Positions 4,809-59,200 of a stretch of 64,000 nucleotides of DNA are shown piece by piece. The notes beneath the pieces were generated by a model. The model had not been told where the DNA came from. It worked only from the letters and a program-made list of their open reading frames with translations, and made no database searches. Made by a program: the position numbers and the translations under genes. Every line of letters starts with the position of its first letter. Positions within the stretch are counted from its first letter, which is position 1. The stretch is from Myxococcota bacterium (lineage in GTDB: Bacteria; Myxococcota_A; UBA9160; UBA6930): NCBI GenBank assembly GCA_030065975.1, contig JASJCN010000001.1, forward strand, positions 4,294 through 68,293, written 5' to 3'.

Positions 4809-4812
4809 CCGC

Positions 4813-6727: not shown

Positions 6728-6812
6728 GTCCCTCTCCGGCGCGAAAGCGCGGTTCCCTGGGGGATTCGCGGATCCAGCATAGGCACCGGCTTCCGCGGCT
6801 GGCAAGCGAGGC

Positions 6813-7604: not shown

Positions 7605-7737
7605 GGGCCGGCAGTCTCGCAACTTCGCCTCACGAGACCAGAAGCGCGTCCACGCGTCCTTCACCCGCCTTCCCCCGACCACCGCTGCCCCCGAGGGGGT
7701 GTGCATCGGGCCCGGAGGACCGTTACCTCCCTTCCTC

Positions 7738-17210: not shown

Positions 17211-17373
17211 GGGGGCTCGGGGATGGGGGGTCGATGGGGGACATCGGCCCCACATCCGGGTCCTTTAGCCCTCACCTTGGGGGCCCCTGAGCTGCCGACT
17301 TGCGTATCGTCGATCACGGCAGAATCGCTTCCCGCCGCGGCAACGCGCCGGCAGGATCCCAGGAGGCCGCTCG

Positions 17374-32775: not shown

Positions 32776-33695
32776 ACCACCACCTGGACTCGAAGCGCTG
32801 GCGGGTGTTCGAGCCGCGCGACGGCGACGTCGTCGTCACCACGTCGTACAAGTCCGGCACGACCTGGATGCAGGGGATCCTGCACGCGCTGATCTACGAC
32901 GGGGATCCCGAAGCACCGGCGGTACGCGAGGTCTCGCCCTGGCTCGACGCGCGCTACCACGCGCCCCTAGAGGACGTCGAGGCGCTGCTGCGGGCCCAGA
33001 CCCATCGCCGCTTCATCAAGTCCCACCTGCCCCTCGACGGGCTCCCCTGGTACCCGAACGTCCACTACGTGATCGTCGGCCGCGACGCGCGCGACGTCTT
33101 CATGTCGTTCTGGAACCACTACTCGAACTACACCGACGCGATGTACGCGCGGCTCAACGACCGGCCCCCCGAGGCCGGGCCGGAGCTGCCCCGCGCCGAC
33201 GGCGATCTCGAGGGTACGTTCCGGCGCTGGATGACCCGGGGCTGGTTCCCCTGGGAGAGCGAGGGCTGGCCCTTCTGGAGCAACCTCCACCACACCCAGA
33301 GCTACTGGGAGTTTCGGCAGCTCCCGAACCTCTTCTTCGTCCACTACGCGGACCTCCTGCGGGATCCCCACGGACAGGTGCGCCGCCTGGCCGACGCGCT
33401 CTCGATGGAGGCCGACGACGCCCTCGTCGATCGCGTGGTCGAGGCGACGCGCTTCACCACCATGCAGCAGAGGAACAAGGCCGCCTTCGACGAGCACATC
33501 CGCGAATCGTTCCAGGGCGGAGCCGAGGCGTTCTTCTTCAAGGGCACGAACGGCCGCTGGCGCGACGTGCTCGGCGAGGAGGAGCTCGCGCTCTACGAAG
33601 AGGCCAAGCGTCGGGTGCTGGATCCCGACTGCGCGGACTGGCTCGAGAACGGCTGGCTCCCGGCTTCCGGCTCCGGGAGCAGCACGGCCCGGTAG
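32736..33695 (+). CDS. sulfotransferase (PAPS-dependent, cytosolic ST-like)
   Basis: GTG start inside track ORF 32478..33695. 5'-PSB motif TSYKSGTTWMQ, 3'-PB motif VGRDARDVFMS, and FFFKGTNGRWRD. Confidence 0.8.
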   Translation: MSDPTPTVTRHYLNHHLDSKRWRVFEPRDGDVVVTTSYKSGTTWMQGILHALIYDGDPEAPAVREVSPWLDARYHAPLEDVEALLRAQTHRRFIKSHLPLDGLPWYPNVHYVIVGRDARDVFMSFWNHYSNYTDAMYARLNDRPPEAGPELPRADGDLEGTFRRWMTRGWFPWESEGWPFWSNLHHTQSYWEFRQLPNLFFVHYADLLRDPHGQVRRLADALSMEADDALVDRVVEATRFTTMQQRNKAAFDEHIRESFQGGAEAFFFKGTNGRWRDVLGEEELALYEEAKRRVLDPDCADWLENGWLPASGSGSSTAR

Positions 33696-34834
33696 CGCGC
33701 CACCGCGGACGCCAGCGAGAAGTGCGCCGCACGGGCACGCTGCCGTTCCGGATCGGCCGGCGCGTCCAGGCTCGCGGCGAGGGCCCTGCCGAGGGCCGCG
33801 GGGTCGTTCGTCGGCACCAGCCGGCCATGGCGTCCGCCCTCGAGGATCTCGGCGGGGCCGCTCGGGCAGTCGGTGGCGACGATGGTGGCACCACATGCGA
33901 GCGCCTCGATCAGCACGTTGGGAAGCCCCTCCCGTTCCGAGGGAAGGGCGAAGGCCGACGCCCGGGCCATGAAGGGCATGGGGTTCTCGACGAATCCCGG
34001 AAGCCCGACGTCCGCGGCGATGCCGAGCTCCGCCGCAAGCGCCTCGAGCTCGCCGCGTTCGGGGCCCTCGCCGAGGATCAGCAGTCGTGCGGGCCGCTCC
34101 GCACGCAGCCGCGAGAAGGCGCGGAGCAGGACGTCGAATCCCTTGCGCGCCTTGAGCTTGCCGACGGCGAGGACCACCGGCGGCGCGCCTCGGCGAAGCC
34201 ACGGGTGGTCGATCGGCGCGCGCGCCTGGAGTGCCAGGTGGGCGCCGTCGATCGGGTTGTAGATCGTCTGGATGCGCCCGCTCTCGATGCCGACCACGTC
34301 GCCGAGGTCGCCCGCCACGCCTTCGGAGACGGCGACGAACGCGTCGGCGTCCGCGTAGAGCCGGCGGGCCATGCGGAGCTTCCAGTGCTTCGAGCGTCGC
34401 TCGACCTTGGCCGAGAGATGCGTGCGCTGGCTCAGCACCAGGCGGAACGCGTGCGGAGAAGCCCGCCTTCCGAGGACGCCCAGGTAGTTGGCGTAGCTCG
34501 CGGCGCACAAGACGGCGTCGGGACGGCGCCGCTCGAGGTAGGAGAGCAGGGCCGGCAGCGCGCGCGCGTAGTGGAAGCGGTGCCAGGGGGCCTTCGGGTC
34601 GCGGAGCAGCCCGTGGCGGATCAGCGGAGTGGGCCAGCGCGCGCCCCACGGCAGGGTGTGGAGTGCAACGTCGCGGGGGATCTCGGCGGCGTGCTCCCCG
34701 CCGCCGAGGGTCACCACCACGTCGACGTCGACCCCGCTGCGCCGGAGCCCGCCGGCCAGGCGCAGCGTGGCGCGGGCGACGCCGCTCGCGGCCAGGGAGG
34801 TCAGGAACAGCGAGATGCGCGGCCGGGGCGGCAT
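33593..34834 (-). CDS. glycosyltransferase family 4 (GT-B, GT1 domain)
   Basis: LPSEREGLPNVLIEALACGATIVATD (EX7E region). N-terminal SGVARATLRLAGGL. Confidence 0.85.
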   Translation of the reverse strand: MPPRPRISLFLTSLAASGVARATLRLAGGLRRSGVDVDVVVTLGGGEHAAEIPRDVALHTLPWGARWPTPLIRHGLLRDPKAPWHRFHYARALPALLSYLERRRPDAVLCAASYANYLGVLGRRASPHAFRLVLSQRTHLSAKVERRSKHWKLRMARRLYADADAFVAVSEGVAGDLGDVVGIESGRIQTIYNPIDGAHLALQARAPIDHPWLRRGAPPVVLAVGKLKARKGFDVLLRAFSRLRAERPARLLILGEGPERGELEALAAELGIAADVGLPGFVENPMPFMARASAFALPSEREGLPNVLIEALACGATIVATDCPSGPAEILEGGRHGRLVPTNDPAALGRALAASLDAPADPERQRARAAHFSLASAVARYRAVLLPEPEAGSQPFSSQSAQSGSSTRRLASS

Positions 34835-41675: not shown

Positions 41676-42923
41676 ATGTCGGCTGCGCCCTTCGAGGGTC
41701 TCAACATGATCCATCCCGAGACCTATGCCAAGCACGGCTATCCCCACGAGCTGTGGAAGTGGCTGCGGCACAACGATCCCGTCCACTTCGTCGAGCAGCC
41801 CGAGGGCGCGGGCCCCTCCTACTGGGCGATCACCCGCCACGCCGACATCACCGAGATCTCGAAGCAGCCCGACAAGTTCCTGAACAACCCTCGGCTCACG
41901 ATCGGGCACCTGCCCGAGGATCGCACCGACGAGTTCCCCGACACGCTGATCCAGATGGACAACCCGCGTCACCGGGTCTTTCGTCGGCTGATCGCCCATC
42001 GCTTCCAGCCCGCCGCCCTGCGGCGCATGCACGCGGACATCGAGGACATCGGCAAGGAGATCGTCGACGCCCTGGTGCAGAACGACTACGGCGAGTGCGA
42101 CTTCGTCGAGAAGGTGAGCGCCCCGCTTCCCATCGCGGTGCTCGGCTGGCTCCTCGGCGCGCCCAAGTCCGACTGGCCGCTGCTCTTCGACTGGACCAAT
42201 CGCATCATCGGAGCCGGGGATCCGGACTTCCAGGCCGAGGGGTCGACCCCGGTCGAGGCGGCGCGGGCCACCATGGTCGAGCTCTTCACCTACTTCGCCA
42301 AGCAGCTCGAGGAGAAGAAGAAGAACCCGGCCGACGACCTGATGACGCTCTTCACGCAGATGGAGGTCGACGGCAAGAAGCTCGAGCTGATGGACCAGCT
42401 GGCCTGGTGCCTGATCATCGTGGTGGCCGGCAACGAGACGACCCGCAACGGGACGAGCGGCGGCATGCTCGCCTTCGTCGAGAACCCCGACCAGATCCGC
42501 CGGCTGCAGGAGGACCCGTCGCTCCTGGCCCCCGCCGTCGAGGAGTGCGTGCGCTGGAGCACGCCGATCATCCACTTCGCCCGCACGGCGGCCTGCGACT
42601 ACGAGCTGCGCGGCAAGCAGATCCGGGAAGGCGACCCGCTCGCGCTCTTCTACGGCTCGGGCAACCGGGACGAGGACGTCTTCGACGATCCCTACTCCTT
42701 CCGCATCGACCGCAATCCCAACCGGCACCTGGGCTTCGGCGTTGGCGAGCATTTCTGCGTGGGCTCCCACCTCGCTCGACTCGAGATGCAGATCGCCTAC
42801 AAGAACCTGCTGCCGCGAATCGAGGAGGTGGAGCTCGCCGGCCCCGTCGAGCGACTCCACTCGAGCCTGGTCGGCGGCGTGAAGAAGCTGCCGATCCGCT
42901 ACAAGCTGAAGCCGATCGCCTGA
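41676..42923 (+). CDS. cytochrome P450
   Basis: GGAG RBS. AGNETTRN (I-helix), EECVRW (ExxR), and heme loop FGVGEHFCVGSHLA. Confidence 0.9.
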   Translation: MSAAPFEGLNMIHPETYAKHGYPHELWKWLRHNDPVHFVEQPEGAGPSYWAITRHADITEISKQPDKFLNNPRLTIGHLPEDRTDEFPDTLIQMDNPRHRVFRRLIAHRFQPAALRRMHADIEDIGKEIVDALVQNDYGECDFVEKVSAPLPIAVLGWLLGAPKSDWPLLFDWTNRIIGAGDPDFQAEGSTPVEAARATMVELFTYFAKQLEEKKKNPADDLMTLFTQMEVDGKKLELMDQLAWCLIIVVAGNETTRNGTSGGMLAFVENPDQIRRLQEDPSLLAPAVEECVRWSTPIIHFARTAACDYELRGKQIREGDPLALFYGSGNRDEDVFDDPYSFRIDRNPNRHLGFGVGEHFCVGSHLARLEMQIAYKNLLPRIEEVELAGPVERLHSSLVGGVKKLPIRYKLKPIA

Positions 42924-43150
42924 ACACCGTCGGGGTCGCTGCCCCGATGCCGGCCTCGAGCGCGCGTGCGCGATGACGTGTGAAGTTGATTCGCGCGCAA
43001 GAATCACACCGGCCAAGGGTGGCAAGTACCTCCAACAGATCCCGAGCGCGACAATGCGGGCGGTCAATCAGAATCTCCGATCGCGGAGACTGCCAGGCAG
43101 CTCCTGGCGCGTTCAAGATCCCGGCCACCTTCACATTCGGCGGTAGACGC

Positions 43151-43639
43151 ATGATTCGGGAGCTGGCAGAGCGGCTCGATGATACAGAGAGGGCAGTGGT
43201 CCAGGCGGTCTTCGACATCTCGCCTGAGACAATCGACGGCGCGCGGTCAAGCTGTGAGGAGCGAAACAATTTCCTGATCTGCAGGGTGGTTAGCTCCGAT
43301 GATTCCAGATGCCCGTTCGAGTTCCACTTTGGGCAAGACAACGAACGGGGGCGATTCAACTTCTTCTTTGGGCTGGGCGCAGAGCTCCACAACTACGAGA
43401 GCCTTGAGGATCCCGAGGAAAGCGAAGAGTTGGCTGAGGATGTGAGTCGATTCCTCAGGTCTACGATCTCATGCGAACGCACCGTGTCTGGGAAAGGCGA
43501 CGTGATTTCCGAGAGGTACTCACCAGACCAGTTCGTCGTTGGCGGAGTCCAAACCCATTTCTGGTACAGGTCTTCCATGCGGGGATGGGTTCGGCGCAAG
43601 AAGGAGATGTCTTCGTACCGACCCTGGATGGGGGAGTAG
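43151..43639 (+). CDS. hypothetical protein (162 aa) in the lower-GC islet
   Basis: Codon-like periodicity and protein-like composition (MIRELAERLDDTERAVVQAVFDISPE...FEFHFGQDNERGRFNFFFG). No signal peptide. Start uncertain. Confidence 0.5.
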   Translation: MIRELAERLDDTERAVVQAVFDISPETIDGARSSCEERNNFLICRVVSSDDSRCPFEFHFGQDNERGRFNFFFGLGAELHNYESLEDPEESEELAEDVSRFLRSTISCERTVSGKGDVISERYSPDQFVVGGVQTHFWYRSSMRGWVRRKKEMSSYRPWMGE

Positions 43640-43763
43640 AGTCACTGACCGGGCAAAGTCCCAGAGTGGTGGCTCGCAGCTGCTCGAGTTGATTGCTCAC
43701 TCGCGCCCGTCCGATTCGCTCGATCTATGGCGGCGGCAAGTTTGTCTACGAGGGGCAGCAGCC

Positions 43764-44123
43764 GTGCCGTCGCTTGAGTACTACCAGATGGGAGAGATGG
43801 TTGCGTCGACGCTGCCGGAACTCGCCGAACAGATGGATAGGTGTCTCGCCGAGTGGGATCCCGAGTTGCCGGGAGCGGTCAACGTCGCTGATGAGGTGCT
43901 GACCGCGGCTCTAGAGGCTTGGCTGGATCTGCGAGCAGGTGACGAACTGCTAGGTCGCGCGTTTCGCCTCATTGAGACGCTTGCGTCACATGCGGACCCG
44001 GACATCAGGGACGCGATCCAAGTAGGCGTGGTGAACTGGTTGGCTGGCGATCCCGATCGACTACAGAAGGCAAAGCCCTTTATGGGGGCTCGCACGGCGG
44101 AAATGCTCGACGCATTGGGCTAG
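43764..44123 (+). CDS. hypothetical small helical protein (119 aa) in the lower-GC islet
   Basis: GTG with a GAGGGG RBS 9 nt upstream. ...LPELAEQMDRCLAEWDPELPGAVNVADEVLTAALEAWLDL...DIRDAIQVGVVNWLAGDPD. Confidence 0.5.
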   Translation: MPSLEYYQMGEMVASTLPELAEQMDRCLAEWDPELPGAVNVADEVLTAALEAWLDLRAGDELLGRAFRLIETLASHADPDIRDAIQVGVVNWLAGDPDRLQKAKPFMGARTAEMLDALG

Positions 44124-48357: not shown

Positions 48358-49122
48358 CTAGAGGCGATCGGCGGAAAGCCGCTCCTGCTCGGCGTCGATG
48401 CGGTCGAGCTCGGCCTGCCAGGCGTCCTGATTCCGCTTCGCGTCCTTGATGTAGGGGCTCATCTGGATGGCGCCGAGGAAGGTCTTGCCCAGCAGCCGGC
48501 CACGCAGCTTGAGTGGGCGGTGGATGTGCATCAGGAGGACGACGCGCTCCTGGTCGGTGTCGTTCCACACCTCGTGCTTGAAGGTGTCGTCGAAGACGAA
48601 CATGCGTCCCTCTTCCCAGCGGTACACCTTGCCCATCACGTCGATCCGGCAGCCCGGATCGTCGGGAACGAACAGGGGCAGGTGGGCGGTGACGATGGCC
48701 TTGCTCACGCCCTTGTGGCGGGGCAGATGGGTGCCCGGCGCCATCACCGAGAAGAACGCGGTCATCAGGCCGGGGATCTGCTCGAGCACGGCCATCGTCT
48801 CGGGGCAGCGGGCGCAGTTCTTCTCCACCGGAACGCCGTAGCCGCGCAGGAAGAAGGAGCGCCAGTGGTCGTCCGCGATGCGCTTGTGGTCGGGAGAGAT
48901 CTTGTAGAGCGGCGGCAGCCGGTCGCGGGCCGCCAGGATCTCTCCCGCCTCCTTCTTGATGGCCGGGTAGGCCCCCTCGAGGAGCTTCGCCCAGGGGAAG
49001 ACGTGGGGATCGAAGACCTCGGGGTCGCCGACCAGTGAGTCCTTCGAGAGGACGCCGTTGATGGGCTTGCGCACGCGCTTGCCGATGCGCATCAGCGTGC
49101 GCCGGAACCAGGAGTCGGCCAT
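48358..49122 (-). CDS. aspartyl/asparaginyl beta-hydroxylase family, LpxO-like
   Basis: APGTHLPRHKGVSKAIVTAHLPLFVP...MFVFDDTFKHEVWNDTDQERVVLLMHI. Confidence 0.85.
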   Translation of the reverse strand: MADSWFRRTLMRIGKRVRKPINGVLSKDSLVGDPEVFDPHVFPWAKLLEGAYPAIKKEAGEILAARDRLPPLYKISPDHKRIADDHWRSFFLRGYGVPVEKNCARCPETMAVLEQIPGLMTAFFSVMAPGTHLPRHKGVSKAIVTAHLPLFVPDDPGCRIDVMGKVYRWEEGRMFVFDDTFKHEVWNDTDQERVVLLMHIHRPLKLRGRLLGKTFLGAIQMSPYIKDAKRNQDAWQAELDRIDAEQERLSADRL

Positions 49123-49126
49123 CGAG

Positions 49127-50308
49127 CTAGATCACACCCACTTCGCGGCCGACCTTGCGCAGCGCGTCGAGGCACTGGTCGAGGTGCTCGCGCGTGTGGG
49201 TGGCCATGTAGGAGGTGCGCACCATGCAGCGCCCCTCCTCGACGGCGGGGGGGATCACCGCGTTGGCGAAGACGCCCTCTCGCAGCAGGCCCGCGACGAC
49301 GTGGAGGACGGGCTCCTCCTCCTGCAGCACCAGCGGGATCACCGGCGACTCGGCGGCCCCGGTGTCGAAGCCCAGGGTCTGGAGCTCGCGCATCATGTAG
49401 TGCGTGTTCTCCCACAGCTGCTTCCGCCGCTCGGGCTCGCGCTCGAGGATGTCGAGCGCGGCCAGCACGGCGGCGGCCGCTGCGGGCGGCATGGCCGCGG
49501 AGAAGATCTCGGTGCGCGCGTGGTGCTTGATGTACTCGATCACCTGGGCGTCGCCGGCCACGAAGCCACCGATGGAGGCCAGGCTCTTCGAGAAGGTCCC
49601 CATCACCAGGTCGATCTGGCCCTCGACGCCGAAGTGCTCGCCGACCCCGCGGCCGTGCTCGCCGAACACGCCGAGGCCGTGGGCGTCGTCCACCATCAGC
49701 CGCGCGTCGTACTGGTCGCGCAGCCTCGTCACCTCGGGCAGCGGGCAGAGATCGCCTTCCATCGAGTACACGCCGTCGACCACGATGAGCCGGCCGCGGT
49801 TCTCGGGTGCGGCCTTCAGCCGCTGCTCCAGATGGGCGGTGTCGTTGTGCCGGAACTTCCACACCTTGCTGAAGCCGAGCCGGGCGCCGTCCATGATGCA
49901 GGCGTGGTCGAGGGAGTCGAGCAGGGCCACGTCGTGGCGGCCGAGCAGGCAGGAGAGCACGCCGACGTTGACCTGGAATCCGGTCGGGAAGGTGAGCGCG
50001 GCCTCGCGCCGCATGAAGACGGCGAGGCGCTCCTCGAGCTCGACGTGGAGGTCGAGGGTGCCGTTCAGGAAGCGCGAGCCGGCGCAGCCGGTGCCGTACT
50101 GGGCGATGGCCTCCTGGGCGGCCTGCTTCACGAGGGGATGGCTGGCCAGCCCCAGGTAGTTGTTGGAGCCGAGCATGACCACCCGCTTTCCGTCCATCTC
50201 GACCACCGGGTCCTGCCCGGAGGAGATGGCTCGGAAGTAGGGGTACAGGCCCAGCGCTCGAGCCATGGCCGGTCGCTCGAAGCCTCGGCACTTGTCGAAG
50301 ACGTCCAT
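49127..50308 (-). CDS. alpha-oxoamine synthase family PLP enzyme (serine palmitoyltransferase / 8-amino-7-oxononanoate synthase-like)
   Basis: Internal ATG (MDVFDKCRGF). SNNYLGL, DDAHGLGV, and the PLP lysine in GTFSKSLASIGGF. Confidence 0.85.
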   Translation of the reverse strand: MDVFDKCRGFERPAMARALGLYPYFRAISSGQDPVVEMDGKRVVMLGSNNYLGLASHPLVKQAAQEAIAQYGTGCAGSRFLNGTLDLHVELEERLAVFMRREAALTFPTGFQVNVGVLSCLLGRHDVALLDSLDHACIMDGARLGFSKVWKFRHNDTAHLEQRLKAAPENRGRLIVVDGVYSMEGDLCPLPEVTRLRDQYDARLMVDDAHGLGVFGEHGRGVGEHFGVEGQIDLVMGTFSKSLASIGGFVAGDAQVIEYIKHHARTEIFSAAMPPAAAAAVLAALDILEREPERRKQLWENTHYMMRELQTLGFDTGAAESPVIPLVLQEEEPVLHVVAGLLREGVFANAVIPPAVEEGRCMVRTSYMATHTREHLDQCLDALRKVGREVGVI

Positions 50309-50405
50309 CGGGTCCCCCGTCTTCCGGGCGCGCCACGCACGCCGAAAGGCTCGCAGAGTCGATCGCAAGAACGCCTGGATCGCAAGGCTTTCGGGTTTTC
50401 GAGGG

Positions 50406-52241
50406 TCAGTCGGACTTCATGCGAGCGGGCCCGGGGCCGCTCAGCGTGGATCCCCGCGGGGCAACCGCGGCCTCGGCGGGCTGGGCCGGTTCCTGCACGC
50501 GCACCAGCCAGATCTCGCGCTCGCGCAGCCGCCAGAGCACCCGCCCCCGCACCGTCTCCAGGTGCTCGAGCTCGATCGGGTCCTCGGCCAGGAGCCGGTC
50601 CAGCCGGGGCTTCCGCTCGGAGTTGGGGACGATCAGGAGCGCCGGCTCGCTCCGGAGCCGGGGCACCACGTCCCGGGGGCGCCGCAGGAGCTCGGGCCGC
50701 ACCGGGAGGGCGTAGCCCACGCTGGCCGGCTGGAAGTCGTGGAGCAGGAGGGTCTCGCCCGGCCGCAGGTGGCGGGCCACGGCCTCGGCAAGCGGGCCCG
50801 CGATGCGGACGCGCTCGAGGGTGGGGAAGAGCGCTCCGAAGGCGCCGAGGTAGAGCACGACCGCGCCCGCGGCGAGGCGCCGGAAGATCCGCGCCGGGGT
50901 CCCGCCGCGCAGCACGCGCACCATGACGCCGGCCACGCCGAGGGCCAGGAGCGCGTAGCCGATGGCCACCGCGCGCACCGCCGTGTCCTCGATGGCGACG
51001 GCCAGCACGATGCTGCCGATCGCCAGAGCGGCGGGCAGCAGGGCACCGACCAGGGCCTCGGCATGGCGCAGCCGGATCGGGATCGGCTCCTCGCTGTCCT
51101 CGCGGAAGCGGAGCTCGAGCGCCACCACGAGCGCCAGTGCCGGGAAGGTGACCAGCATGTAGTGGGGCAGCTTCGAGGTGACCAGCTCGAGCATCACGAA
51201 GCAGCCGACGATCCAGGCGACGGGCAGGAGCAGGCGCCGGTCCCGGTTGCGCTTGCGGAACGCGCGCACGACGGCGGCCGGGAGCAGGGCGCCCCACGGC
51301 GCGAAGATCAGGAGCGTCGTGGCGACGTAGTAGCCCGGGATGCCCCAGTGGCCCTCGAAGCCGCGGGTGGTGCGGCCCAGCATGTCTTCCTGCACGCCCT
51401 TGGTGAAGAAGGCGCCCTCGGTCTCGAGGACGGCTGGAACGCCCCACGCCGCGAAGATCGCGACGGCGAGCGGCGCTCCCCACACGATCCCGAGCGAGGG
51501 CTCGAGGCGCTCGGAGCGCTGCCAGGCTCGGAGCGCCGCGGTGCCGGCGAGCGCGATCATCACCACGACGCCCACGCTGCCGAAGCCCGGGATCGCGACC
51601 GCGAGCGCGCCGACTCCGCACAGCGCCAGCAGGGTTCGCGTCTCGCTGTCGGAACGCCGCCCCCGCACCAGCTCGAGGGCCACCGCTGCGGCGATCAGGA
51701 AGCCCACGTTCACGAGCTTCGCGAGGGCACCCCACGCGACCGCGAGCCAGAAGAGGAGCTGCACCCAGCCCGGCCGTTCGGTGCCCTCGCGCAGCTTCTC
51801 CCACGCGAGGAAGGAGACCGTGGTGCCGAGGAGCAGGGCCGCGTCCGCGGTGAAGGCGTGGGCCTCGATCACGAGCATCACCGACGTCGCGAGGATCACG
51901 CCCGCACGGAATCCCACGTCGGGACCGAAGCGGCGCGCGAAGGCGAAGGCGGAGAGCAGCACGACCGCGAGGCTCGAGAGCGCCGAGGGCAGGCGCAGCC
52001 CGAAGGGCGTCTCTCCCAGGGCGGACCACGAGGCGCCCGCCAGCCAGTACACGAGGATCGGCTTCTGGAAGCGCAGCTCGTCCCAGTTGGTGGGGACGAT
52101 CCAGTCGCCGCGCTCGGCCATCTCGCGCACGGCCAGAGCGAAGCGCGCCTCGTCGCGGTCGACCACGCCGATCGAGGCGCTTCCCACGAGGAAGAGGGCG
52201 AGACCGCCCAGGGCAAGGAGTGCGACGCGGCGGGCCTCCAC
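50406..52241 (-). CDS. glycosyltransferase family 39 (ArnT/PMT-like lipid-linked sugar transferase)
   Basis: GTG start 76 nt from the divergent PAP2 gene. DRDEARFALAVREMAERGDWIVPT..FQKPILVYW. About 12 TM segments plus a C-terminal soluble domain. Confidence 0.8.
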   Translation of the reverse strand: MEARRVALLALGGLALFLVGSASIGVVDRDEARFALAVREMAERGDWIVPTNWDELRFQKPILVYWLAGASWSALGETPFGLRLPSALSSLAVVLLSAFAFARRFGPDVGFRAGVILATSVMLVIEAHAFTADAALLLGTTVSFLAWEKLREGTERPGWVQLLFWLAVAWGALAKLVNVGFLIAAAVALELVRGRRSDSETRTLLALCGVGALAVAIPGFGSVGVVVMIALAGTAALRAWQRSERLEPSLGIVWGAPLAVAIFAAWGVPAVLETEGAFFTKGVQEDMLGRTTRGFEGHWGIPGYYVATTLLIFAPWGALLPAAVVRAFRKRNRDRRLLLPVAWIVGCFVMLELVTSKLPHYMLVTFPALALVVALELRFREDSEEPIPIRLRHAEALVGALLPAALAIGSIVLAVAIEDTAVRAVAIGYALLALGVAGVMVRVLRGGTPARIFRRLAAGAVVLYLGAFGALFPTLERVRIAGPLAEAVARHLRPGETLLLHDFQPASVGYALPVRPELLRRPRDVVPRLRSEPALLIVPNSERKPRLDRLLAEDPIELEHLETVRGRVLWRLREREIWLVRVQEPAQPAEAAVAPRGSTLSGPGPARMKSD

Positions 52242-52317
52242 GCGCGCGAGGCTAACGGCGCGGGCCGCCGGCCGCGAGCATCCCCGCAGAGCCGAACCCG
52301 CTATCGTGCCCCCGCCC

Positions 52318-53004
52318 ATGACAGCCAGCGAGACACAGCGCATCCCCGGCCGCGGGCGCGTGATCGCGGGCCTCTTCGTCGGAGCCGCCTGTACGGCGGG
52401 GGTGCTCCCCTTCGACGTCGCGGGGATCGAGCTCGGGCGTACGCTCGAGGCGGCGTGGGCTGCGCAGTCGCCCGGCTGGAACGACGCGGGGAAGCAGTGG
52501 ACCCAGGCCTTCGGTCGGATCGAGGGCGGCATCGTTTCGGGCGTGCTGCTGCTCTTGCTCGGCCGCCGGAAGCGGGCGGGCCTGCGCCGGGTGGTGACCC
52601 TGGCCCTGGCCCTGCTGCTGATCGGTGCCTACGTCGCGGCCTTCAAGATCGCGGTCGGGCGCGCGCGCCCCGGCCCGGCGCTGCGCGCCACGGGCAGCTA
52701 CGAGACGCTGATCGAGGGCCCGGCCGTGGCGCTTCGCGACCCGCAGTACCGCTCGTTCCCCTCCGGCCATACCGCGAGCGCGGCGGCGGCGGCGGCCGTG
52801 GTGTCGGCGTACCATCCGGCGCTGCTGCCCATCGGCTTCTCGCTCACGGCGATCGTGGCTGCCGAGCGCGTCTACGACGCGAAGCACTACCCGAGCGACG
52901 TGGTCGCCGGGGGGTTCCTCGGCTGGTGGGTCGGCTGGTACGCGGTGGCGATGCGGGCGCGGGGGCTGCGGATGCCCTGGGAGGCGCCGGAGGAATTCGA
53001 GTGA
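52318..53004 (+). CDS. PAP2 superfamily phosphatase
   Basis: KIAVGRARP, SFPSGHTA and ERVYDAKHYPSDVVAG: the three acid-phosphatase motifs. Confidence 0.85.
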   Translation: MTASETQRIPGRGRVIAGLFVGAACTAGVLPFDVAGIELGRTLEAAWAAQSPGWNDAGKQWTQAFGRIEGGIVSGVLLLLLGRRKRAGLRRVVTLALALLLIGAYVAAFKIAVGRARPGPALRATGSYETLIEGPAVALRDPQYRSFPSGHTASAAAAAAVVSAYHPALLPIGFSLTAIVAAERVYDAKHYPSDVVAGGFLGWWVGWYAVAMRARGLRMPWEAPEEFE

Positions 53005-54014
53005 CCGATCCGTTGACCATGGTCGGAGCCCCGGGCTCGCCCTACAGCCGCAAGCTCCGCGCCGTGCTCCGCTATCGCCGCATCCCCTACGTGTGGGTGA
53101 CGCGCGGCTGGCCCGGGAGCGACGACATCCCGCCCGCGCGGGTCCCGGTGATTCCCTACGTGCAGTTCCCGGGGGAGCAGCGCTCGGTCGCCGACACCAC
53201 GCCGCTGATCCGTCGCCTCGAGGACCTGCACGAAGGGCGCTCGGTGATCCCCGACGATCCGGTGATCGCCATGCTCGACGCCCTGCTCGAGGACTATGGC
53301 GACGAGTGGCTGACCAAGTGCATGTTCCACTACCGCTGGGCGTTCCAGGCGGACATCGACAAGGCCGCGGCGGTGCTCCCGCGTTGGAGCAAGATCCACG
53401 CCACCGACGAGCAGGTGGCGCCCTTCTCGAAGATGTTCTCCGAGCGCCAGATCGAGCGGCTCTGGGTGGTGGGGTCCAACGAGACCACCGGGCCCGTGAT
53501 CGAGGAGAGCTACACGCGCTTCCTCGACCTCCTGGACGCGCGGCTCACGGAGGCGCCCTTCGTGCTCGGCGAGCGGCCTGCCTCGAGCGACTTCGCGCTG
53601 TACGGCCAGCTGACGCAGCTCGCGCTCTTCGATCCCACGCCCGCCGCGATCACCATCGGGCGCGCGCCCCGTGTCTACGCCTGGGTCGAGTCGATGGAAG
53701 AGCTCTCGGGCTGGGCGCCCTCCCAGAGCGGCTGGATCGACCGCGACGCGATCCCGGAGACCCTCACGGCCTTCCTCTCCGAAGTCGGGCGGGTGTACGC
53801 CCCGGCCATGCTCGCCAACGCCGCCGCTCTCGACGCGAACGCCGATCAGGTGGAGTGCGAGATCGACGGAAAGCCGTGGGTGCAGAAGCCCTTCCCCTAC
53901 CAGGGGAAGTGCCTGGCCGAGCTCCGCACGGCGCACGCGGCCCTTGCGCCGGGGGACCGCAGCGCCTTCGATGCGATCGTCGCGGGTACCGGATGCGAGG
54001 CGCTCTTCGCCTAA
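53001..54014 (+). CDS. glutathione S-transferase-like protein
   Basis: GTGA overlap with the PAP2 stop (alternative ATG at 53019). Thioredoxin-like N-terminus SPYSRKLRAVLRYRRIPY; C-terminal SDFALYGQL. Confidence 0.7.
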   Translation: MTDPLTMVGAPGSPYSRKLRAVLRYRRIPYVWVTRGWPGSDDIPPARVPVIPYVQFPGEQRSVADTTPLIRRLEDLHEGRSVIPDDPVIAMLDALLEDYGDEWLTKCMFHYRWAFQADIDKAAAVLPRWSKIHATDEQVAPFSKMFSERQIERLWVVGSNETTGPVIEESYTRFLDLLDARLTEAPFVLGERPASSDFALYGQLTQLALFDPTPAAITIGRAPRVYAWVESMEELSGWAPSQSGWIDRDAIPETLTAFLSEVGRVYAPAMLANAAALDANADQVECEIDGKPWVQKPFPYQGKCLAELRTAHAALAPGDRSAFDAIVAGTGCEALFA

Positions 54015-54089: not shown

Positions 54090-55547
54090 ATGTCCCGGAC
54101 CCCTTCCCGTTGCGCCCTGCTCGTCGCCCTGATCCTCCTGACGGCCGGCGCGAGCCACGCGGGCACCTTCGACCTGATCGCCACACTGGAGGTCGGCGCG
54201 ATCGGGACCCACAAGAGCTACCTCGTCACGGGCTCCGGGTCGCGAGTCACGAGCGTCGGAGGAGGCGTCGCCCAGATACCGGCCGGCCTCTTCCCCGCCA
54301 CTCTCGCCGGCTTGATCTCGCCGCCCGACTTCGGCCTCGACAACGTCCAGGTCGTCGGTGGAGGGCTTCCCGCCGGAACCCTGGACGCAGGGGCGCCGAC
54401 GAACGTGCTTCCGCTGCTGGGCATTCAGCAGCTGCGGCAAGGGACCCGCACCGACCTCACGGTCGCGCAGTCTCCCATCGGCGGTGGCGGAACCGCGATG
54501 GGAAGCCTGCTGGATGCGTTTGCGGTGACCCTGAGCGGCTCGCCCTGGCTCCTCGGCGTTCACACGGTGACGGGCACCGGTCTGGGCGCCCGCACGCAGG
54601 TGCTGAGCGGCTTCGATGCACGGACGGAGGCGGGAAGGGGCGTTGTGCGGTTCGTCTCTCCCGGGTCGACCCGCATCCCCGGGTTTCCGGTCCAGATCCC
54701 GACCGGAGGCATCCTCACGCTCGAGTACGTGACCGCCGCCGACGAGCCCGGTGCGCTGTGGCTCGGAGCCTTGCTGCTGCTCTTGCTCCTCGGCTTCGTA
54801 CGATCCTCGCGCCTGTCTCCTGCTCTTCGCAGTGTTCTGCTCGGAGTCGCCGTGTCGATCGTGCCTGCGACGACGAGCCACGCGGGCACATTCGACCTGG
54901 TCGCGACCCTGGATGTCGGACCGATCGGGGGAGTCGGCGGCTACCAGGTCACCGGGTCCGCGTCGGGGGTGACGAGCATCGGCGGCGGTGTCGCCCAGAT
55001 TCCCGCCGGCCTGTTTCCGGCGACGATCGCGGGGATCCTGTCGCCGGTGGACTCCGGCTTCGACAACTTCCGTGTCGTCGGAGGAGGCCTGCCCGCCGGA
55101 ACGCTGAACGCGGCCCTCTCGACGAACGCACTTCCCCTGCAAGGGACGCATCAGGTCCTGGCCGGCGCGATCCAGGGCGGCTTCATGGCGCAGACCCCCA
55201 TCGGCGGTGGGGGGACGGCCATGGGGATCTTCGGTGGTCTCCTGCCGGTCACGCTGAGTGGGTCCCCTTGGCTACTGGGCATCCACACCGTGGTGGGCGC
55301 CGGGCTGGCAAGCGGGGTCGAGCAGGTCCTCAGCGGTTTCGATGCGCGGACGGCATCCGGAGCGGGCGTCGTGCAATTCGTGTCTCCCGCGACGGCTCGC
55401 GTCGCGGCGCTTCCCGTGCTCCTCCCTACCGGCTCGACACTGACCCTCGAGTATCTGGCCGCCGCCACCGAACCGATGCCCGTCGTCCTGCTGAGCGTGG
55501 TGCTGTTCCTCACGGCGGCGCGAGTGCGGAGTGCTCGACCCCTGTAG
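54090..55547 (+). CDS. secreted protein made of two tandem copies of an unrecognised ~215-aa domain, each followed by a PEP-CTERM-like xEP-TM-basic signal
   Basis: GGAGGA RBS. Signal peptide ending SHA-GTFDL. Copy 1 ends DEPGALWLGALLLLLLLGFVRSSR (54741-54812). A second signal-peptide-like stretch and second copy follow in frame, ending TEPMPVVLLSVVLFLTAARVRSARPL. Confidence 0.7.
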   Translation: MSRTPSRCALLVALILLTAGASHAGTFDLIATLEVGAIGTHKSYLVTGSGSRVTSVGGGVAQIPAGLFPATLAGLISPPDFGLDNVQVVGGGLPAGTLDAGAPTNVLPLLGIQQLRQGTRTDLTVAQSPIGGGGTAMGSLLDAFAVTLSGSPWLLGVHTVTGTGLGARTQVLSGFDARTEAGRGVVRFVSPGSTRIPGFPVQIPTGGILTLEYVTAADEPGALWLGALLLLLLLGFVRSSRLSPALRSVLLGVAVSIVPATTSHAGTFDLVATLDVGPIGGVGGYQVTGSASGVTSIGGGVAQIPAGLFPATIAGILSPVDSGFDNFRVVGGGLPAGTLNAALSTNALPLQGTHQVLAGAIQGGFMAQTPIGGGGTAMGIFGGLLPVTLSGSPWLLGIHTVVGAGLASGVEQVLSGFDARTASGAGVVQFVSPATARVAALPVLLPTGSTLTLEYLAAATEPMPVVLLSVVLFLTAARVRSARPL

Positions 55548-56634
55548 GCGCGGGGCCATCGCCCTCGTCTTCGCGCTGATGGCCCACTGCGCTTGCGGCC
55601 GAGCACCCGAGCCGCTGCTCTCGGGCGTGCTCGTCCGCGCGAGCGAGCCTGCACCGGGCCTTCCCGTCCTGTCGGACCTCACGGTGTTCCGCGACCGGCT
55701 CTACGTGGCGGCCTCCCGCAACCCCCTCGTCGAGCGTGGCGCAGCCGTTCTGGCGAGCCGGGACGGGCGGGAGTTCACGCGTCTGCTGGATCAGCCCTTG
55801 GCCGACGGGTTCGCCCGCATCCGCGTGATCGATGACGTGCTCTTCGTGCCCGGGCTCGACCCGCCCGGGACGGCCCCGGGTCGGGTGTGGATCAGCGAGG
55901 ACGGCGGGACCTTCCGCTCCACGCTCGTGCCCGGTGCGGTTCACGCCTACGACGTCGCCGCGCACGAAGGCGCGGTGGTCCTCTCGGGGGCGCTCGAAGG
56001 AGGCCGGCTCGGGGCGTTGTTCGTCCGCGAGGGGCTCGCGTGGCGGGAGATCCTGCGGCAGCCCTACTCGCGGCTCAAGTTCCTGCTGCCCGTGGGAAAC
56101 GCGCTGCTCGTCGCGAAGACCGACGTGGGGACAGCCGTCGACTACCTCGTGTTGCGCGGCCCCGTCGACGCGATCGAGGCCGAGCCCCGGGACGTGGTCG
56201 CCGGCGAGGCGATCACGTTCCGTTGGTTCACCTCCTCGCGCGGCGTGCTCTTCTGGTCCCTCCGGGACGAGACGGGTCTCCGTTGCCTGACGAGCGACGA
56301 CGCCGAGAGTTGGTCGCCCGTGCCCGGACTCGATGGCCGGTTCGTGTCCGACTTCGCGGAGCTTCGGGGGAATCTCTATGCCCTCGCGCAGGACGGCGTT
56401 CACGGCTCGACGGACCACCGGACGTTCCGGCCGGTGGCCGCGGACCCCGAGGGTGCCCCCTTCGACCCGGTGCCCGCCGAGGGTGTCTACAACGCCGACG
56501 CGACGGCCAGCATGGTGGCGTTTCGCGGCGAGCTGCTGGCCGGAAGCAGCCGCAACGGCATGCTCTACGCACTGATTCCCGAGGGGAGCCGGGAGGAACC
56601 GGTTGCTAGGCGGGAGAGCGCTGTGGTTGAATGA
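55531..56634 (+). CDS. secreted/lipoprotein-like repeat protein (possible beta-propeller), unknown function
   Basis: GTG start. N-terminal AIALVFALMAHCACG. Recurrent ~45-aa segments with G/D...L.A...G motifs. No catalytic motif recognised. Confidence 0.6.
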   Translation: MLDPCRRGAIALVFALMAHCACGRAPEPLLSGVLVRASEPAPGLPVLSDLTVFRDRLYVAASRNPLVERGAAVLASRDGREFTRLLDQPLADGFARIRVIDDVLFVPGLDPPGTAPGRVWISEDGGTFRSTLVPGAVHAYDVAAHEGAVVLSGALEGGRLGALFVREGLAWREILRQPYSRLKFLLPVGNALLVAKTDVGTAVDYLVLRGPVDAIEAEPRDVVAGEAITFRWFTSSRGVLFWSLRDETGLRCLTSDDAESWSPVPGLDGRFVSDFAELRGNLYALAQDGVHGSTDHRTFRPVAADPEGAPFDPVPAEGVYNADATASMVAFRGELLAGSSRNGMLYALIPEGSREEPVARRESAVVE

Positions 56635-56653
56635 CCCGGGGGAGGGACACGTC

Positions 56654-57352
56654 ATGAAGCGGCTGTTCATTGCTGCACTCTTTCTGTTCTCCGGACCTCC
56701 TGCCTGGGCAGGCACGTTCAACCTCAAGGCGACCCTCGAGGTGCCGCTCTTCCTGGAGAGCCCCCTGCAGCTCTCCGGGTCGGCGACGGGAGTGACGAGC
56801 ATCGGAGGCGGGGTGGCCCAGGTCCCGGGCGGCTTGTTCCAGTCCCAGATCTCGACCCCGATCTCCCCGCCCCAGTCCGGGCTGAACAAGCTCACGATCA
56901 CGAACTTCGGCCTTCCGGCCGGGACGCTCGACGCGGCGCAGCCGCTGAACCAGCTCGGCCTCCAGGGCACGGTGAACATCTTCGCCGGAGCGAACTTGGG
57001 GGGCTCGTGGACGCTGGGTCCGATCGGATCGGGAGGCACCTCGACCAGCCTCATCCTGGGGATCTTCCCGCTGGTGCTCAGTGCCGAGGCCTGGCAGATC
57101 GGGACCTTCGTGATCTCGGGCCCGCTCGGAACGCAGACCCTCGTCGGCATCGATGCGCGAACGCCGGCGGGCGAGGGCCTGGTCCAGTTCGTCGCCCCCG
57201 GGACCTTCAGTGACGCCCTGGGGATCATCGGCGGCGGGGCGGCGTTCCCGGCCGGGTCCACGCTCACGCTGCGCTACGTCGCCGTCGGCGAGCCGGTCGT
57301 CTGGGCGCTCCTGACCGGAGCCCTCTGCGTAATCGGTCGTCGTCGCCGCTAG
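56654..57352 (+). CDS. PEP-CTERM-like sorting-signal protein, paralog A (232 aa)
   Basis: GGGGGAGGG RBS. MKRLFIAALFLFSGPPAWA-GTFNL ... TLTLRYVAVGEPVVWALLTGALCVIGRRRR. Confidence 0.75.
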   Translation: MKRLFIAALFLFSGPPAWAGTFNLKATLEVPLFLESPLQLSGSATGVTSIGGGVAQVPGGLFQSQISTPISPPQSGLNKLTITNFGLPAGTLDAAQPLNQLGLQGTVNIFAGANLGGSWTLGPIGSGGTSTSLILGIFPLVLSAEAWQIGTFVISGPLGTQTLVGIDARTPAGEGLVQFVAPGTFSDALGIIGGGAAFPAGSTLTLRYVAVGEPVVWALLTGALCVIGRRRR

Positions 57353-57364
57353 CGGCGCGCCGGA

Positions 57365-57439
57365 TCAGATCTCGATGCCGGGGTTCGCCGGGTCGTCGTA
57401 GCGCTGATGCAGGAAGGGGAGGAGCCACTCGCCGGGCAT
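57365..57439 (-). pseudogene. duplicated 3' fragment (25 codons) of the acetoacetate decarboxylase-family gene
   Basis: Near-identical (2 mismatches by eye) to 58403-58476. Encodes PGEWLLPFLHQRYDDPANPGIEI(stop) with no upstream body. Confidence 0.7.
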
Positions 57440-57674
57440 TCACGGCTCGACGGACCACCGGACGTTCCGGCCGGTGGCCGCGGACCCCGAGGGTGCCCCC
57501 TTCGACCCGGTGCCCGCCGAGGGTGTCTACAATGCCGACGCGACGGCCAGCATGGTGGCGTTACGCGGCGAGCTGCTGGCCGGAAGCAGCCGCAACGGCG
57601 TGCTCTACGCACTGATGCCCGAGGGGAGCCGGGAGGAACCGGTTGCTAGGCGGGAGAGCGCTGTGGTTGAATGA
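57439..57674 (+). pseudogene. duplicated 3' fragment (78 codons) of the 55531..56634 gene
   Basis: 56401-56640 vs 57441-57680 shows 4 mismatches in 240 nt by hand alignment. Lacks the 5' ~870 nt of the parent gene. Track ORF 57474..57674 lies within it. Confidence 0.7.
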
Positions 57675-57691
57675 CCCGGGGCGGAGGCACC

Positions 57692-58390
57692 ATGAAGCGA
57701 ATCCTCGTTGCCGCACTCTTCCTGCTCGCCGGGCCTCCTGCCTGGGCCGGCACCTTCAACCTGAACGCCACCCTGGTGGTTCCCATGTTCGTTCTGGAGG
57801 AGGTGCAGTTCTCCGGCTCGGCCGTGGGCGTGACGAGTGTCGGGGGAGGGATCGCGCAGGTCCCGGGCGGCTTGTTCCCGTCGCAGATCTCGACTCCGAT
57901 CTCCCCGCCCCAGTCCGGCCTCAACAAGCTGACGGTGATGAACTTCGGACTGCAAGGCGGAACTCTCGACGCCGGACAGGCCACGAGCCCGCTCGGCCTC
58001 CAGGGAACGGTGAACCTTCTCGCTGGCGCCAATCCGGCCGGTGGCTTCGGTCTGGGTCCGATCGGCGCGGGCGGAACCACGGCCGGGTTGATCTTCGGGA
58101 TCTTCCCCATCACGCTGAGCGCCGAACCCTGGCAGCTCGGCACCTTCATGATCCCGTCGCCCTTCGGGCCCTCGCAGACGCTCGTCGGGTTCGACGCACG
58201 CACGCCCAACGGCGCAGGCCTGATCCAGTTCGTGTCGCCCGGAACCTTCTCGGACTTCTTCGGTGTCGGCTCCGGAACTCCGTTCCCGGCCGGCTCGACG
58301 CTCACGCTCCAGTACGTGGCCGTCGCCGAGCCGGTCGTCTGGGCCCTCCTGACTGGAGCCCTCTGCGTGATCGGTCGTCGTCGCCGCTAG
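57692..58390 (+). CDS. PEP-CTERM-like sorting-signal protein, paralog B (232 aa)
   Basis: GGCGGAGG RBS. MKRILVAALFLLAGPPAWA-GTFNL ... TLTLQYVAVAEPVVWALLTGALCVIGRRRR. Confidence 0.75.
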   Translation: MKRILVAALFLLAGPPAWAGTFNLNATLVVPMFVLEEVQFSGSAVGVTSVGGGIAQVPGGLFPSQISTPISPPQSGLNKLTVMNFGLQGGTLDAGQATSPLGLQGTVNLLAGANPAGGFGLGPIGAGGTTAGLIFGIFPITLSAEPWQLGTFMIPSPFGPSQTLVGFDARTPNGAGLIQFVSPGTFSDFFGVGSGTPFPAGSTLTLQYVAVAEPVVWALLTGALCVIGRRRR

Positions 58391-58402
58391 CGGCGCGCCG
58401 GA

Positions 58403-59200
58403 TCAGATCTCGATGCCGGGGTTCGCCGGGTCGTCGTAGCGCTGGTGCAGGAAGGGGAGGAGCCACTCGCCGGGCACCGGGCGCAGCACGCGGCCGTTGG
58501 ACTCGGTGGTGCCCTCCTCGGCCTCCATGCGGACGATGCGCAGGACCGGGAGGTCGGCCACGGGGTCGAAGGGCGACTCGCGCAGCAGGATCTCGCCGTC
58601 CTCGATGCGGTTCACCTTGCGGTGCCGATGGCGCCACTCGAGGCGCACCAGCAGCGGGTCGCCGTCGAAGTCGCGCTCCTTCTCGCAGGAGGGCAGGGCC
58701 TTGAAGCAGAAGCCGAGCTCGGTCATCTCGCGCTCGGGAAGCGCCTCTCCGATGCGGCCCCCGGCCTCCATGTAGGCGACGCCCAGCCGGGTCACGCTGC
58801 CGCGCGCCTTCTCGTCGTCCATGTCGAATGCGATGTCGGCGATCTTCTTGGGCTCGCCGAAGGTCTCACGGCCCGGCACCACCGCCTGCTCGGTCGTCAT
58901 CGGCATCGTGACCAGGTAGATGCCCTCCTCGCCGTCGTAGCGGGCCTTCACGCCGAAGACGCCGGACCCGATCTCGATCGTGAGCTCGGGCGTCACGTGC
59001 ATCGATACGTGGGAGAGGGTCATGCACACGAGCGGCTCGTCGGCGGGCTCGAGGGGGCGGGGGATCACGGCGCGGGCGAGGGCCGGATCCGTCTCGTACT
59101 CGCAGCGGATCGAGCGCACGGTGCTGTCCAGGAACTCGGGGTTCGACTCCCGGGCGGCCTTCACCTGCTCGAGGGTCTTCACGTAGCGGAGACGGGCCAT
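58403..59200 (-). CDS. acetoacetate decarboxylase (ADC) family protein
   Basis: Internal ATG of ORF 58403..60220, overlapping the upstream stop by 1 nt (TGATG). 265 aa with beta-cone-like ADC family features (GVFGVKARYDGEEGIYLVTMPMT, CFKALPS). Confidence 0.75.
   Translation of the reverse strand: MARLRYVKTLEQVKAARESNPEFLDSTVRSIRCEYETDPALARAVIPRPLEPADEPLVCMTLSHVSMHVTPELTIEIGSGVFGVKARYDGEEGIYLVTMPMTTEQAVVPGRETFGEPKKIADIAFDMDDEKARGSVTRLGVAYMEAGGRIGEALPEREMTELGFCFKALPSCEKERDFDGDPLLVRLEWRHRHRKVNRIEDGEILLRESPFDPVADLPVLRIVRMEAEEGTTESNGRVLRPVPGEWLLPFLHQRYDDPANPGIEI

Follow-up and report, generated by a model that had tools for sequence, protein, structure and literature searches.

Introduction

The cargo of PEP-CTERM/exosortase systems is a large and almost entirely uncharacterized part of the proteins that sediment and biofilm bacteria export. 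Uncharacterized cargo families are common, very few cargo proteins have an assigned role (PepA is one), and exosortase genes are usually not adjacent to the genes of their cargo. Here, we describe a family of this kind in a 64-kb stretch of DNA (below, the window) from a Myxococcota bacterium assembled from a marine sediment metagenome (GenBank assembly GCA_030065975.1, contig JASJCN010000001.1). The window holds an array of four paralogous copies of a putatively exported domain at positions 54090-58390, plus strand, each copy ending in an xEP motif, a hydrophobic helix, and arginines. Marine sediment is a typical habitat of PEP-CTERM systems, and their cargo characteristically lacks known domains and undergoes paralogous expansion (Haft 2006, PMC1569441). 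The cargo genes form single-gene operons with long upstream regions, and the sorting signal lies near the C terminus "virtually without exception" (Haft 2006, PMC1569441).

The array resembles the PEP-CTERM/exosortase system (EpsH, XrtA; PMC1569441) in its signal peptides, its motif followed by ~17 hydrophobic residues and a basic tail, its cargo without known homology, its paralogous expansion, and its sediment origin, and it has relatives with canonical VPEP tails that pass the profile hidden Markov models (HMMs). It departs from that system in several ways: the window copies carry D, T, G, or A in place of the first Pro and are HMM negative, one tail is internal to a fused open reading frame (ORF), and the genes belong to an operon that also includes a lipoprotein-like gene, instead of each having a sigma-54 promoter to itself.

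The nearest studied functional analog is PepA (NF033554), an experimentally supported matrix and floc factor of Zoogloea and Aquincola (PMC9850573). Its model, at 261 positions, is similar in length to our family, whose members are nearly all 230-270 amino acids (aa) long, and it shares the arrangement of signal peptide, uncharacterized domain, and VPEP tail. Alignments to NF033554 reach into the domain in two relatives (residues 63-242 of P0012 and 101-240 of P0010), but relatives score 20-31 bits (best, 31.5) against a cutoff of 80, mostly from the tail, and the window copies give no match. Because these scores are below threshold and dominated by the tail, we treat domain homology to PepA as a lead only and not as established. 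Other NCBIfam families (EDSAP-1, NF041538; THxN, NF038125; NF038129; XDP1, NF041927) likewise join a small exported, uncharacterized domain to a PEP-CTERM tail, but the matches of our relatives to such families cover the last ~25-30 residues and fall far below the cutoffs, and none of these models describes the mature domain.

MYXO-CTERM/myxosortase and other Cys-containing signals (PMC11980579) have the same tripartite C-terminal architecture, and the best matches of housekeeping genes in the window are likewise to Myxococcota or "delta proteobacterium" metagenome-assembled genomes (MAGs). For the formate-tetrahydrofolate ligase of the window, these best matches reach 68-69% identity, with 66% to Acidobacteriota. 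They place the taxon only approximately, in an uncultured, high-G+C lineage of the diderm type. The invariant signature Cys of MYXO-CTERM is, however, absent from the array, where the signature is E-P.

Three precursors carry four paralogous domains

Comparison of the four ~196-aa domains (alignment A1) gave pairwise identities of 42-73% over ~210-240 aa, with BLASTP E values of 1e-39 to 1e-116. This similarity is far beyond chance and bears out the four paralogs that had been proposed here from the letters alone. Copies 3 and 4 are 73% identical and copies 1 and 2 are 60-62% identical, while identity between the two pairs is 42-47%. All copies follow the same plan, in which a signal-type segment ending AxA-GTF(D/N)L leads into the domain, followed by D/T/G/A-EP, 14-18 hydrophobic residues, and Arg. 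The conserved blocks listed in the original prediction were also all present, namely GGG(V/I)AQ(I/V)P, PIGxGGT, the W of LSxxxW, G(F/I)DART, and TLTLxY. A six-frame regular-expression scan of the whole 64 kb found such a tail nowhere outside the four copies.

The copies have a G+C content at third codon positions (GC3) of 0.83-0.88, in a window of ~70% G+C overall. The ratio of nonsynonymous to synonymous substitutions per site (dN/dS, or omega) among the copies is 0.30-0.32 at a dS of 0.7-0.8, which indicates purifying selection. Taken together, the GC3 values and a dN/dS of ~0.3 identify the copies as genuine protein-coding genes.

While the four predicted domains are all there, copies 1 and 2 are not separate genes but lie in a single 485-aa ORF, with neither a stop codon nor a usable start codon between them. 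The locus is thus made up of three precursors carrying four paralogous domains. Its gene order is GST-like gene, copy 1-2 ORF, a gene for a 367-aa protein, copy 3, gene fragments, and copy 4 (Table 1). Upstream of the ATG at 54090 lies a ribosome-binding site, GGAGGA. The 5' end of the 367-aa gene overlaps the 3' end of the copy 1-2 ORF, and 19 nucleotides (nt) separate the stop of the 367-aa gene from the start of copy 3. Given the single strand, the overlapping or very short spacers, and the good ribosome-binding sites, an operon is likely, and the 367-aa gene is probably cotranscribed with the copies.

The tails are homologous to PEP-CTERM signals

To place the window tails, we compared them with those of their relatives in an alignment of 54 sequences (alignment A4). 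The same columns, directly after the last beta strand (LTLxF/Y), read V-P-E-P in relatives and x-E-P in the four copies of the window, and most relatives end in the canonical VPEP-G-T-LLLLG-G-GL-GRRR, whose register the window xEP shares. The Glu of the motif is invariant, the following Pro is kept in 53/54 sequences, and the preceding Pro is kept in 49/54. The five sequences that lack the first Pro are exactly the four window copies and P0003, their syntenic ortholog. The shared register and the restriction of the Pro loss to these five sequences indicate that the window tails are homologous to PEP-CTERM tails and that one lineage lost the first Pro.

Among relatives, 27/42 match PF07589 and 24/42 match TIGR02595 at an E value of <=0.01, and five that were checked individually score 18.4-24.9 bits, above the curated TIGR02595 cutoff of 16 bits. 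In the window, a helix of 14-18 hydrophobic residues and a basic C-terminal end (RVRSARPL or RRRR) are found in copies 2, 3, and 4; copy 1 has its helix and RSSR, but internal to the fused ORF. An N-terminal signal peptide, with n-region, h-region, and AxA-G site, aligns across the family by inspection.

We consider it reasonably probable, though well short of certain, that the copies are Sec-exported cargo of the exosortase type with a drifted (x)EP signal, bound for the cell surface or polysaccharide matrix and working there with the adjacent lipoprotein-like protein. Sec would export each copy, signal peptidase I would cut at AxA-G, and the C-terminal helix would hold the protein transiently in the inner membrane with its Arg cluster in the cytoplasm. 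An exosortase encoded elsewhere in the genome would then cleave at (x)EP, freeing a compact ~196-aa, all-beta, Gly-rich, and almost uncharged domain or reattaching it at the surface or in the exopolysaccharide (EPS) matrix. The motif would have drifted from PEP to D/T/G/A-EP in this lineage.

Several observations weigh against this proposal. None of the four window tails matches TIGR02595 or PF07589 even at an E value of <=10, and all four lack the first Pro of the near-invariant PEP motif (DEP, TEP, GEP, and AEP). The original prediction was to be abandoned if the tails failed these models and the genome lacked any exosortase, and the first half of this is what the scans returned; what stands of the proposed PEP-CTERM-like tail is its homology within the 54-sequence alignment. 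As had been noted from the start, there is no exosortase in the 64 kb (~50 ORFs scanned) and no EPS locus at the copies. We also found no exosortase within 10 kb of any relative examined, and at the copies neither a PrsK/PrsR pair nor a sigma-54 promoter; window-wide counts of the sigma-54 pattern are those expected by chance. The array genes sit in a tight operon, unlike the single-gene operons of Haft 2006, and a search for RNA runs found none. Scans for sigma-70 promoters and terminators were also empty. With two defining tests negative (the HMM score and the PEP tripeptide) and three positive, we regard the copies as diverged members of a PEP-CTERM-bearing family and not as confirmed PEP-CTERM proteins.

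The same observations raise a less likely but credible alternative, in which the tail is now a plain inner-membrane anchor and no longer an exosortase substrate, so that the beta domain would be periplasmic, perhaps with the adjacent lipoprotein. The failure of the HMMs on all four tails, the lack of an exosortase among the window ORFs, and the confinement of the Pro loss to the clade of the four copies and P0003 would all fit an anchor, as would the internal position of tail 1, which is unusual for a sorting signal found near the C terminus (PMC1569441). However, an anchor would not need the Glu and the second Pro, which are strictly kept in the four diverged copies and their ortholog. Relative P0007, with PEA, also shows that the motif has drifted elsewhere in the family. 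Further, copies 3 and 4 have the same tail at the protein level, with 95% identity in DNA, although their domains differ by 27%, which indicates constraint on the tail. We count this retention of E-P and of the whole tail despite a diverged domain in favor of exosortase-type sorting, along with the tail homology, the family context, the sediment habitat, and the general properties of PEP-CTERM cargo.

The mature domain is Gly-rich, predicted to be all-beta, and rare

The mature domain contains 17-19% Gly, no Cys, and 9-21 charged residues per 196, in keeping with the composition first described for it. Pfam and NCBIfam scans of the copies at an E value of <=10 returned nothing relevant, and a search of PDB sequences with the family profile returned nothing. 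We modeled the domain of copy 3 (residues encoded from 56708 to 57295) with AlphaFold2. Although an earlier run with 5 sequences was poor (predicted local distance difference test score [pLDDT], 52), a run with 54 sequences gave a confident model (pLDDT, 93.7; predicted template modeling score, 0.89). The model is all-beta, with ~16 strands and one short helix; its first strand starts where signal peptidase would cut, and its last (TLTLxY) runs up to the EP motif.

Foldseek comparison of the model with PDB gave nothing convincing (best E value, 0.015; template modeling [TM] score, <=0.26), nor did comparison with BFVD (best E value, 0.026). Provisionally, then, the predicted fold is without a match in PDB or BFVD, and the ~200-aa domain remains, as originally stated, without an assigned family by Pfam, NCBIfam, PDB sequence, or fold. 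Barrel matches to OmpA, PsbO, and LolA were rejected as noise. An OmpA-like outer-membrane beta-barrel was considered in its own right and rejected: the top matches, to OmpA and phage outer-membrane proteins, reached E values of only 0.015-0.03 and TM scores of 0.13-0.20, and the protein ends in a helix and Arg rather than in the aromatic residue of an OmpA-like beta-signal.

Residues invariant across the family are D149, R151, and G157 in the GFDxRT block and G107, G109, and G110 in the PIGGGGT loop. They fall in interstrand loops of the model, which makes them a candidate binding site.

The original prediction called for a search for further members, and about 59 were found. Apart from the proteins of the window itself, a word-indexed search of 5.8 billion clusters recovered a single relative, P0003, and a second word-indexed protein search with the broad alignment A3 added little. 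A five-sequence profile, run with HMMER against all 1.84 billion representatives, matched 59 proteins at an E value of <=1e-3, 13 of them at <=1e-10. A scan of GTDB species representatives with the family profile found no close relative. All members that we traced come from metagenome assemblies or MAG-type records, and the named ones among them are listed as "hypothetical protein." It is a real family, though a rare and uncatalogued one.

Copies 1 and 2 form a fused precursor

Tail 1 (DEP-GALWLGALLLLLLLGFV-RSSR) runs in frame straight into the signal-like segment of copy 2 (LSPALRSVLLGVAVSIVPATTSHA before GTFDL). The sole in-frame GTG in this region, at 54852, would leave copy 2 without an n-region or h-region. 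A Logan contig assembled independently from the same run spans 54608-56264, including the fusion point, with 0 differences, and the fusion is therefore not an assembler artifact. The 485-aa product is also recorded from two contigs (P0004). The dN/dS between copies 1 and 2 is 0.32.

A hairpin topology would make such a precursor workable. It would consist of tail helix 1 (N-out, C-in) and the signal-like helix 2 (N-in, C-out), joined by an 11-residue loop that contains four basic residues. The loop would lie in the cytoplasm and both domains on the periplasmic side, each keeping its flanking cleavage sites. The two proteases of the proposed pathway could then free each of the domains.

A second in-frame two-domain fusion, of 528 aa, occurs in an unrelated family member, P0011. 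Its gene lies at 3468-5054 on a 5965-bp contig of JGI sample 3300078620, where it closes a run of four ~250-270-aa genes, probably an array of paralogs, and precedes a 203-aa gene.

Copies 3 and 4 arose by tandem duplication

Copies 3 and 4 arose through a 1040-bp tandem duplication, the units of which lie at 56395-57438 and 57435-58476 and include fragments of both flanking genes. One fragment aligns to positions 296-373 of the 367-aa protein family profile; the other is the 3' end of the ADC-like gene (Table 1). A 60-nt unitig crosses the novel 57438/57439 junction without a mismatch, and the depth of the shared right flank is about doubled, at 19.2, from which we conclude that the tandem arrangement is real.

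The NCBI assembly made from the same sample places copies 3 and 4 on separate contigs (L102 and L103; JAAUYD010019585.1 and JAAUYD010078755.1) of 1151 and 1039 bp. Each is one repeat unit long, which illustrates how the duplication breaks short-read assemblies. Another reading of the separate contigs is that two coexisting strains each contributed one allele of a single gene and that the assembler concatenated the two, and the depth of the junction unitig, 4.8 against ~9-12 around it, would agree. We think this very improbable: the junction crossed without mismatch can exist only in a tandem, the right flank has double depth, and tandem pairs are the rule among relatives (L007, L012, L099, and L104).

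The two units are mosaic in their identity: the flanks, nonfunctional fragments included, are 97-100% identical and the tail is 95% identical, whereas the signal peptide and mature domain are 60-80% identical. Over the mature domain, copies 3 and 4 differ with a dS of 0.72 and a dN of 0.21, and a core dS of this size marks the cores as old paralogs rather than recently diversified sequences. The near-identity of the fragments beside a core dS of ~0.7 points to homogenization of the flanks or replacement of the core: either gene conversion has kept the flanks alike, or the core of a recent duplicate was replaced through recombination.

Such a mosaic raises the question of whether the array is a diversifying cassette, in which conserved ends and flanks let recombination swap a variable surface core for antigenic or phage-receptor variation. 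A comparison with the syntenic orthologous locus (L001) bears on this. There, the GST-like gene is followed by one family member and then by the 367-aa ortholog, so that one copy lies between these two genes compared with two in the window, and identities to the window are 81% for the GST-like protein, 54% for the family member, and 59% for the 367-aa protein. Both the difference in copy number and the lower identity of the family member would be expected of a cassette. We nonetheless judge it unlikely. Omega is 0.13-0.40 in every 40-codon window, never exceeding 1, and the core is old and under purifying selection. Substitutions between copies 3 and 4 carry no adenine-specific bias of the diversity-generating retroelement type, and no recombinase, reverse transcriptase, or silent cassette lies nearby. 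The suggestion that this is a rapidly evolving family consequently finds little backing: the copies do diverge faster than the GST-like neighbor, but at an omega of 0.30-0.32.

A 367-aa partner and a recurrent gene neighborhood

The partner of the family in the window, the 367-aa exported protein, is conserved in four loci. Besides L001, these include a 25-kb contig of the same sample (L104), where the homolog is divergent from two tandem members, and L099, where it lies within 8 kb of two members. Only 4 homologs were found in the word-indexed search of 5.8 billion clusters, and all 4 have a Cys where the signal peptide ends, which gives the protein the look of a lipoprotein. The 367-aa protein has no Pfam or NCBIfam match at an E value of <=10 and nothing in PDB by sequence, profile included. 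Its four SxDxxx[F/W] motifs are reminiscent, by eye only, of Asp-boxes, and one homolog matches the KIB1-4 beta-propeller weakly (E value, 0.11); a propeller-like fold is a tentative suggestion. A 350-aa gene upstream of P0005 (L004) was considered and is not a homolog, and the regulators on L104, considered as PrsK/PrsR, are NtrB/NtrC.

The lipid-remodeling and catabolic genes between which the original prediction had set the array are not conserved partners of the family. What is conserved is the 367-aa protein and, elsewhere, another set of genes. In five independent loci (L007-10, L011, L012/13, L014/15, and L099), members, often in tandem pairs, lie beside sulfatase-family proteins that are mutually orthologous and 45-62% identical. 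Four of the five also encode 900-1000-aa Spermine_synth-domain proteins, ~800-aa proteins with multiple tetratricopeptide repeats (TPRs), or both; in L011, which is 3.8 kb long, only the sulfatase was seen. Two Spermine_synth proteins were checked, and both pass the cutoff of NF037959 (fused major facilitator superfamily [MFS]/spermidine synthase). The TPR proteins match PrsT best, at 232 and 188 bits, but the cutoff is 312, and we therefore did not file them as PrsT. The recurrent set spans 5255-11439 in L007, 1-3771 in L011, 389-11663 in L012, 788-10738 in L014, and 388-11331 in L099.

The sulfatase-family neighbors carry a membrane anchor at the N terminus, share a conserved DTLRAD...SWTKTSMAS region, and lack the C/SxPxR formylglycine motif. 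Instead of sulfatases, they may be alkaline-phosphatase-superfamily phosphotransferases or phosphodiesterases. The set of sulfatase, Spermine_synth, TPR, and family genes looks like a conserved, undescribed gene module, and a full-text literature search on a sulfatase/spermidine-synthase/TPR/PEP-CTERM neighborhood found nothing relevant. The window has no homolog of the sulfatase-family, Spermine_synth, or TPR gene types.

More speculatively, and in our view rather doubtfully, these parts could belong to one undescribed envelope or matrix module. Its signature cargo would be the beta domain, with a fold absent from PDB, and it would further comprise the 367-aa lipoprotein, the membrane-anchored alkaline-phosphatase-superfamily ("sulfatase") enzyme, the giant fused MFS/spermidine-synthase-like protein, and the PrsT-like TPR protein. 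The xEP motif would then reflect a changed exosortase specificity, and the in-frame fusions (the copy 1-2 ORF and P0011) would be polyproteins cut by signal peptidase and exosortase.

Table 1 Features of the array, its flanking genes, and the sulfatase-family genes of related loci
Feature	Position	Strand	Notes
GST-like gene, conserved upstream neighbor	53040-54014	+	Pfam GST_N_3/GST_C_2
Single two-domain ORF, copies 1 and 2 in frame, 485 aa	54090-55547	+	Two profile match stretches, E value 1.2e-181
Signal peptide of copy 1, MSRTPSRCALLVALILLTAGASHA before GTFDL	54090-54161	+	Basic n-region, hydrophobic core, AxA site; by inspection
Mature domain 1, ~196 aa, predicted all-beta, DEP at end	54162-54749	+	Alignments A1 and A2; Gly 17.8%, no Cys
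Tail 1, DEP, 17-residue hydrophobic helix GALWLGALLLLLLLGFV, RSSR	54741-54812	+	Internal, not C-terminal
Signal-like segment of copy 2, LSPALRSVLLGVAVSIVPATTSHA before GTFDL	54813-54884	+	Internal, without its own start codon
Mature domain 2, TEP at end	54885-55475	+	60-62% identity to copy 1
Tail 2, TEP, hydrophobic helix, RVRSARPL, stop	55467-55547	+	
367-aa exported protein, probably a lipoprotein	55531-56634	+	Conserved partner of the family
Copy 3, 232 aa (P0001): signal peptide, domain, GEP-VVWALLTGALCVIG-RRRR	56654-57352	+	GGGAGGG ribosome-binding site upstream
Fragment, 3' end (~25 last codons) of ADC-like gene	57353-57438	-	92-98% identical to 58391-58476
Pseudogene fragment, last ~80 codons of 367-aa gene	57439-57674	+	96-100% identical to 56395-56634
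Copy 4, 232 aa (P0002): signal peptide, domain, AEP-VVWALLTGALCVIG-RRRR	57692-58390	+	GGAGG ribosome-binding site upstream
Functional ADC-like gene	58403-59179	-	Pfam ADC
Sulfatase-family gene, L007	7203-8696		
Sulfatase-family gene, L011	576-1988		
Sulfatase-family gene, L012	389-1834		
Sulfatase-family gene, L014	8210-9619		

Significance of the family

The mature domain is undescribed in Pfam, NCBIfam, and PDB, and what is new here is an uncatalogued PEP-CTERM cargo family with a variant motif. The sorting system itself is known; the family adds one more cargo family and no new system, and current understanding is not overturned. Its interest lies first in a compact, confidently modeled all-beta domain without a structural neighbor in PDB or BFVD. 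Second, a clade that keeps E-P and drops the first Pro is a natural experiment on the residues that an exosortase needs. Two independent in-frame fusions also raise the question of how a tail followed directly by a signal peptide is processed, and the recurrent gene neighborhood could guide functional work.

Other features of the window

Upstream of the array, on the opposite strand, are genes for formate-tetrahydrofolate ligase, an LpxO-like hydroxylase, a class I/II aminotransferase, and an ArnT-like glycosyltransferase, with a PAP2 gene on the plus strand; downstream are ADC-like, amidohydrolase, KshA-like Rieske, and TetR genes. Two Asp/Arg beta-hydroxylases (LpxO-like), the class I/II aminotransferase (possibly serine-palmitoyltransferase-like or Kbl-like), the ArnT-like PMT_2 glycosyltransferase, and the PAP2 phosphatase, at 48358-53004 and 17374-17967, suggest envelope-lipid modification. 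This cluster is not conserved beside family members elsewhere.

Genes for a sulfotransferase, a GT4 glycosyltransferase, a radical-SAM/SPASM protein, and a methyltransferase lie at 32478-34834 and 4813-7880, with no recognizable EPS export locus. A gene at 11522-13063 (plus strand) encodes a 513-aa multipass membrane protein with no Pfam or NCBIfam match and is flanked by a FabH-like (KAS III) gene (10303-11190) and a hexapeptide acyltransferase gene (13063-13965). The segment at 42001-44000, which follows a cytochrome P450-like gene (~41700-42923, by eye), has a G+C content of 63% compared with ~70% elsewhere and several small ORFs, and it may have been inserted. Finally, 13986-17255 (minus strand) encodes a 1089-aa secreted reprolysin-like (M12B) metalloprotease without a C-terminal sorting tail.

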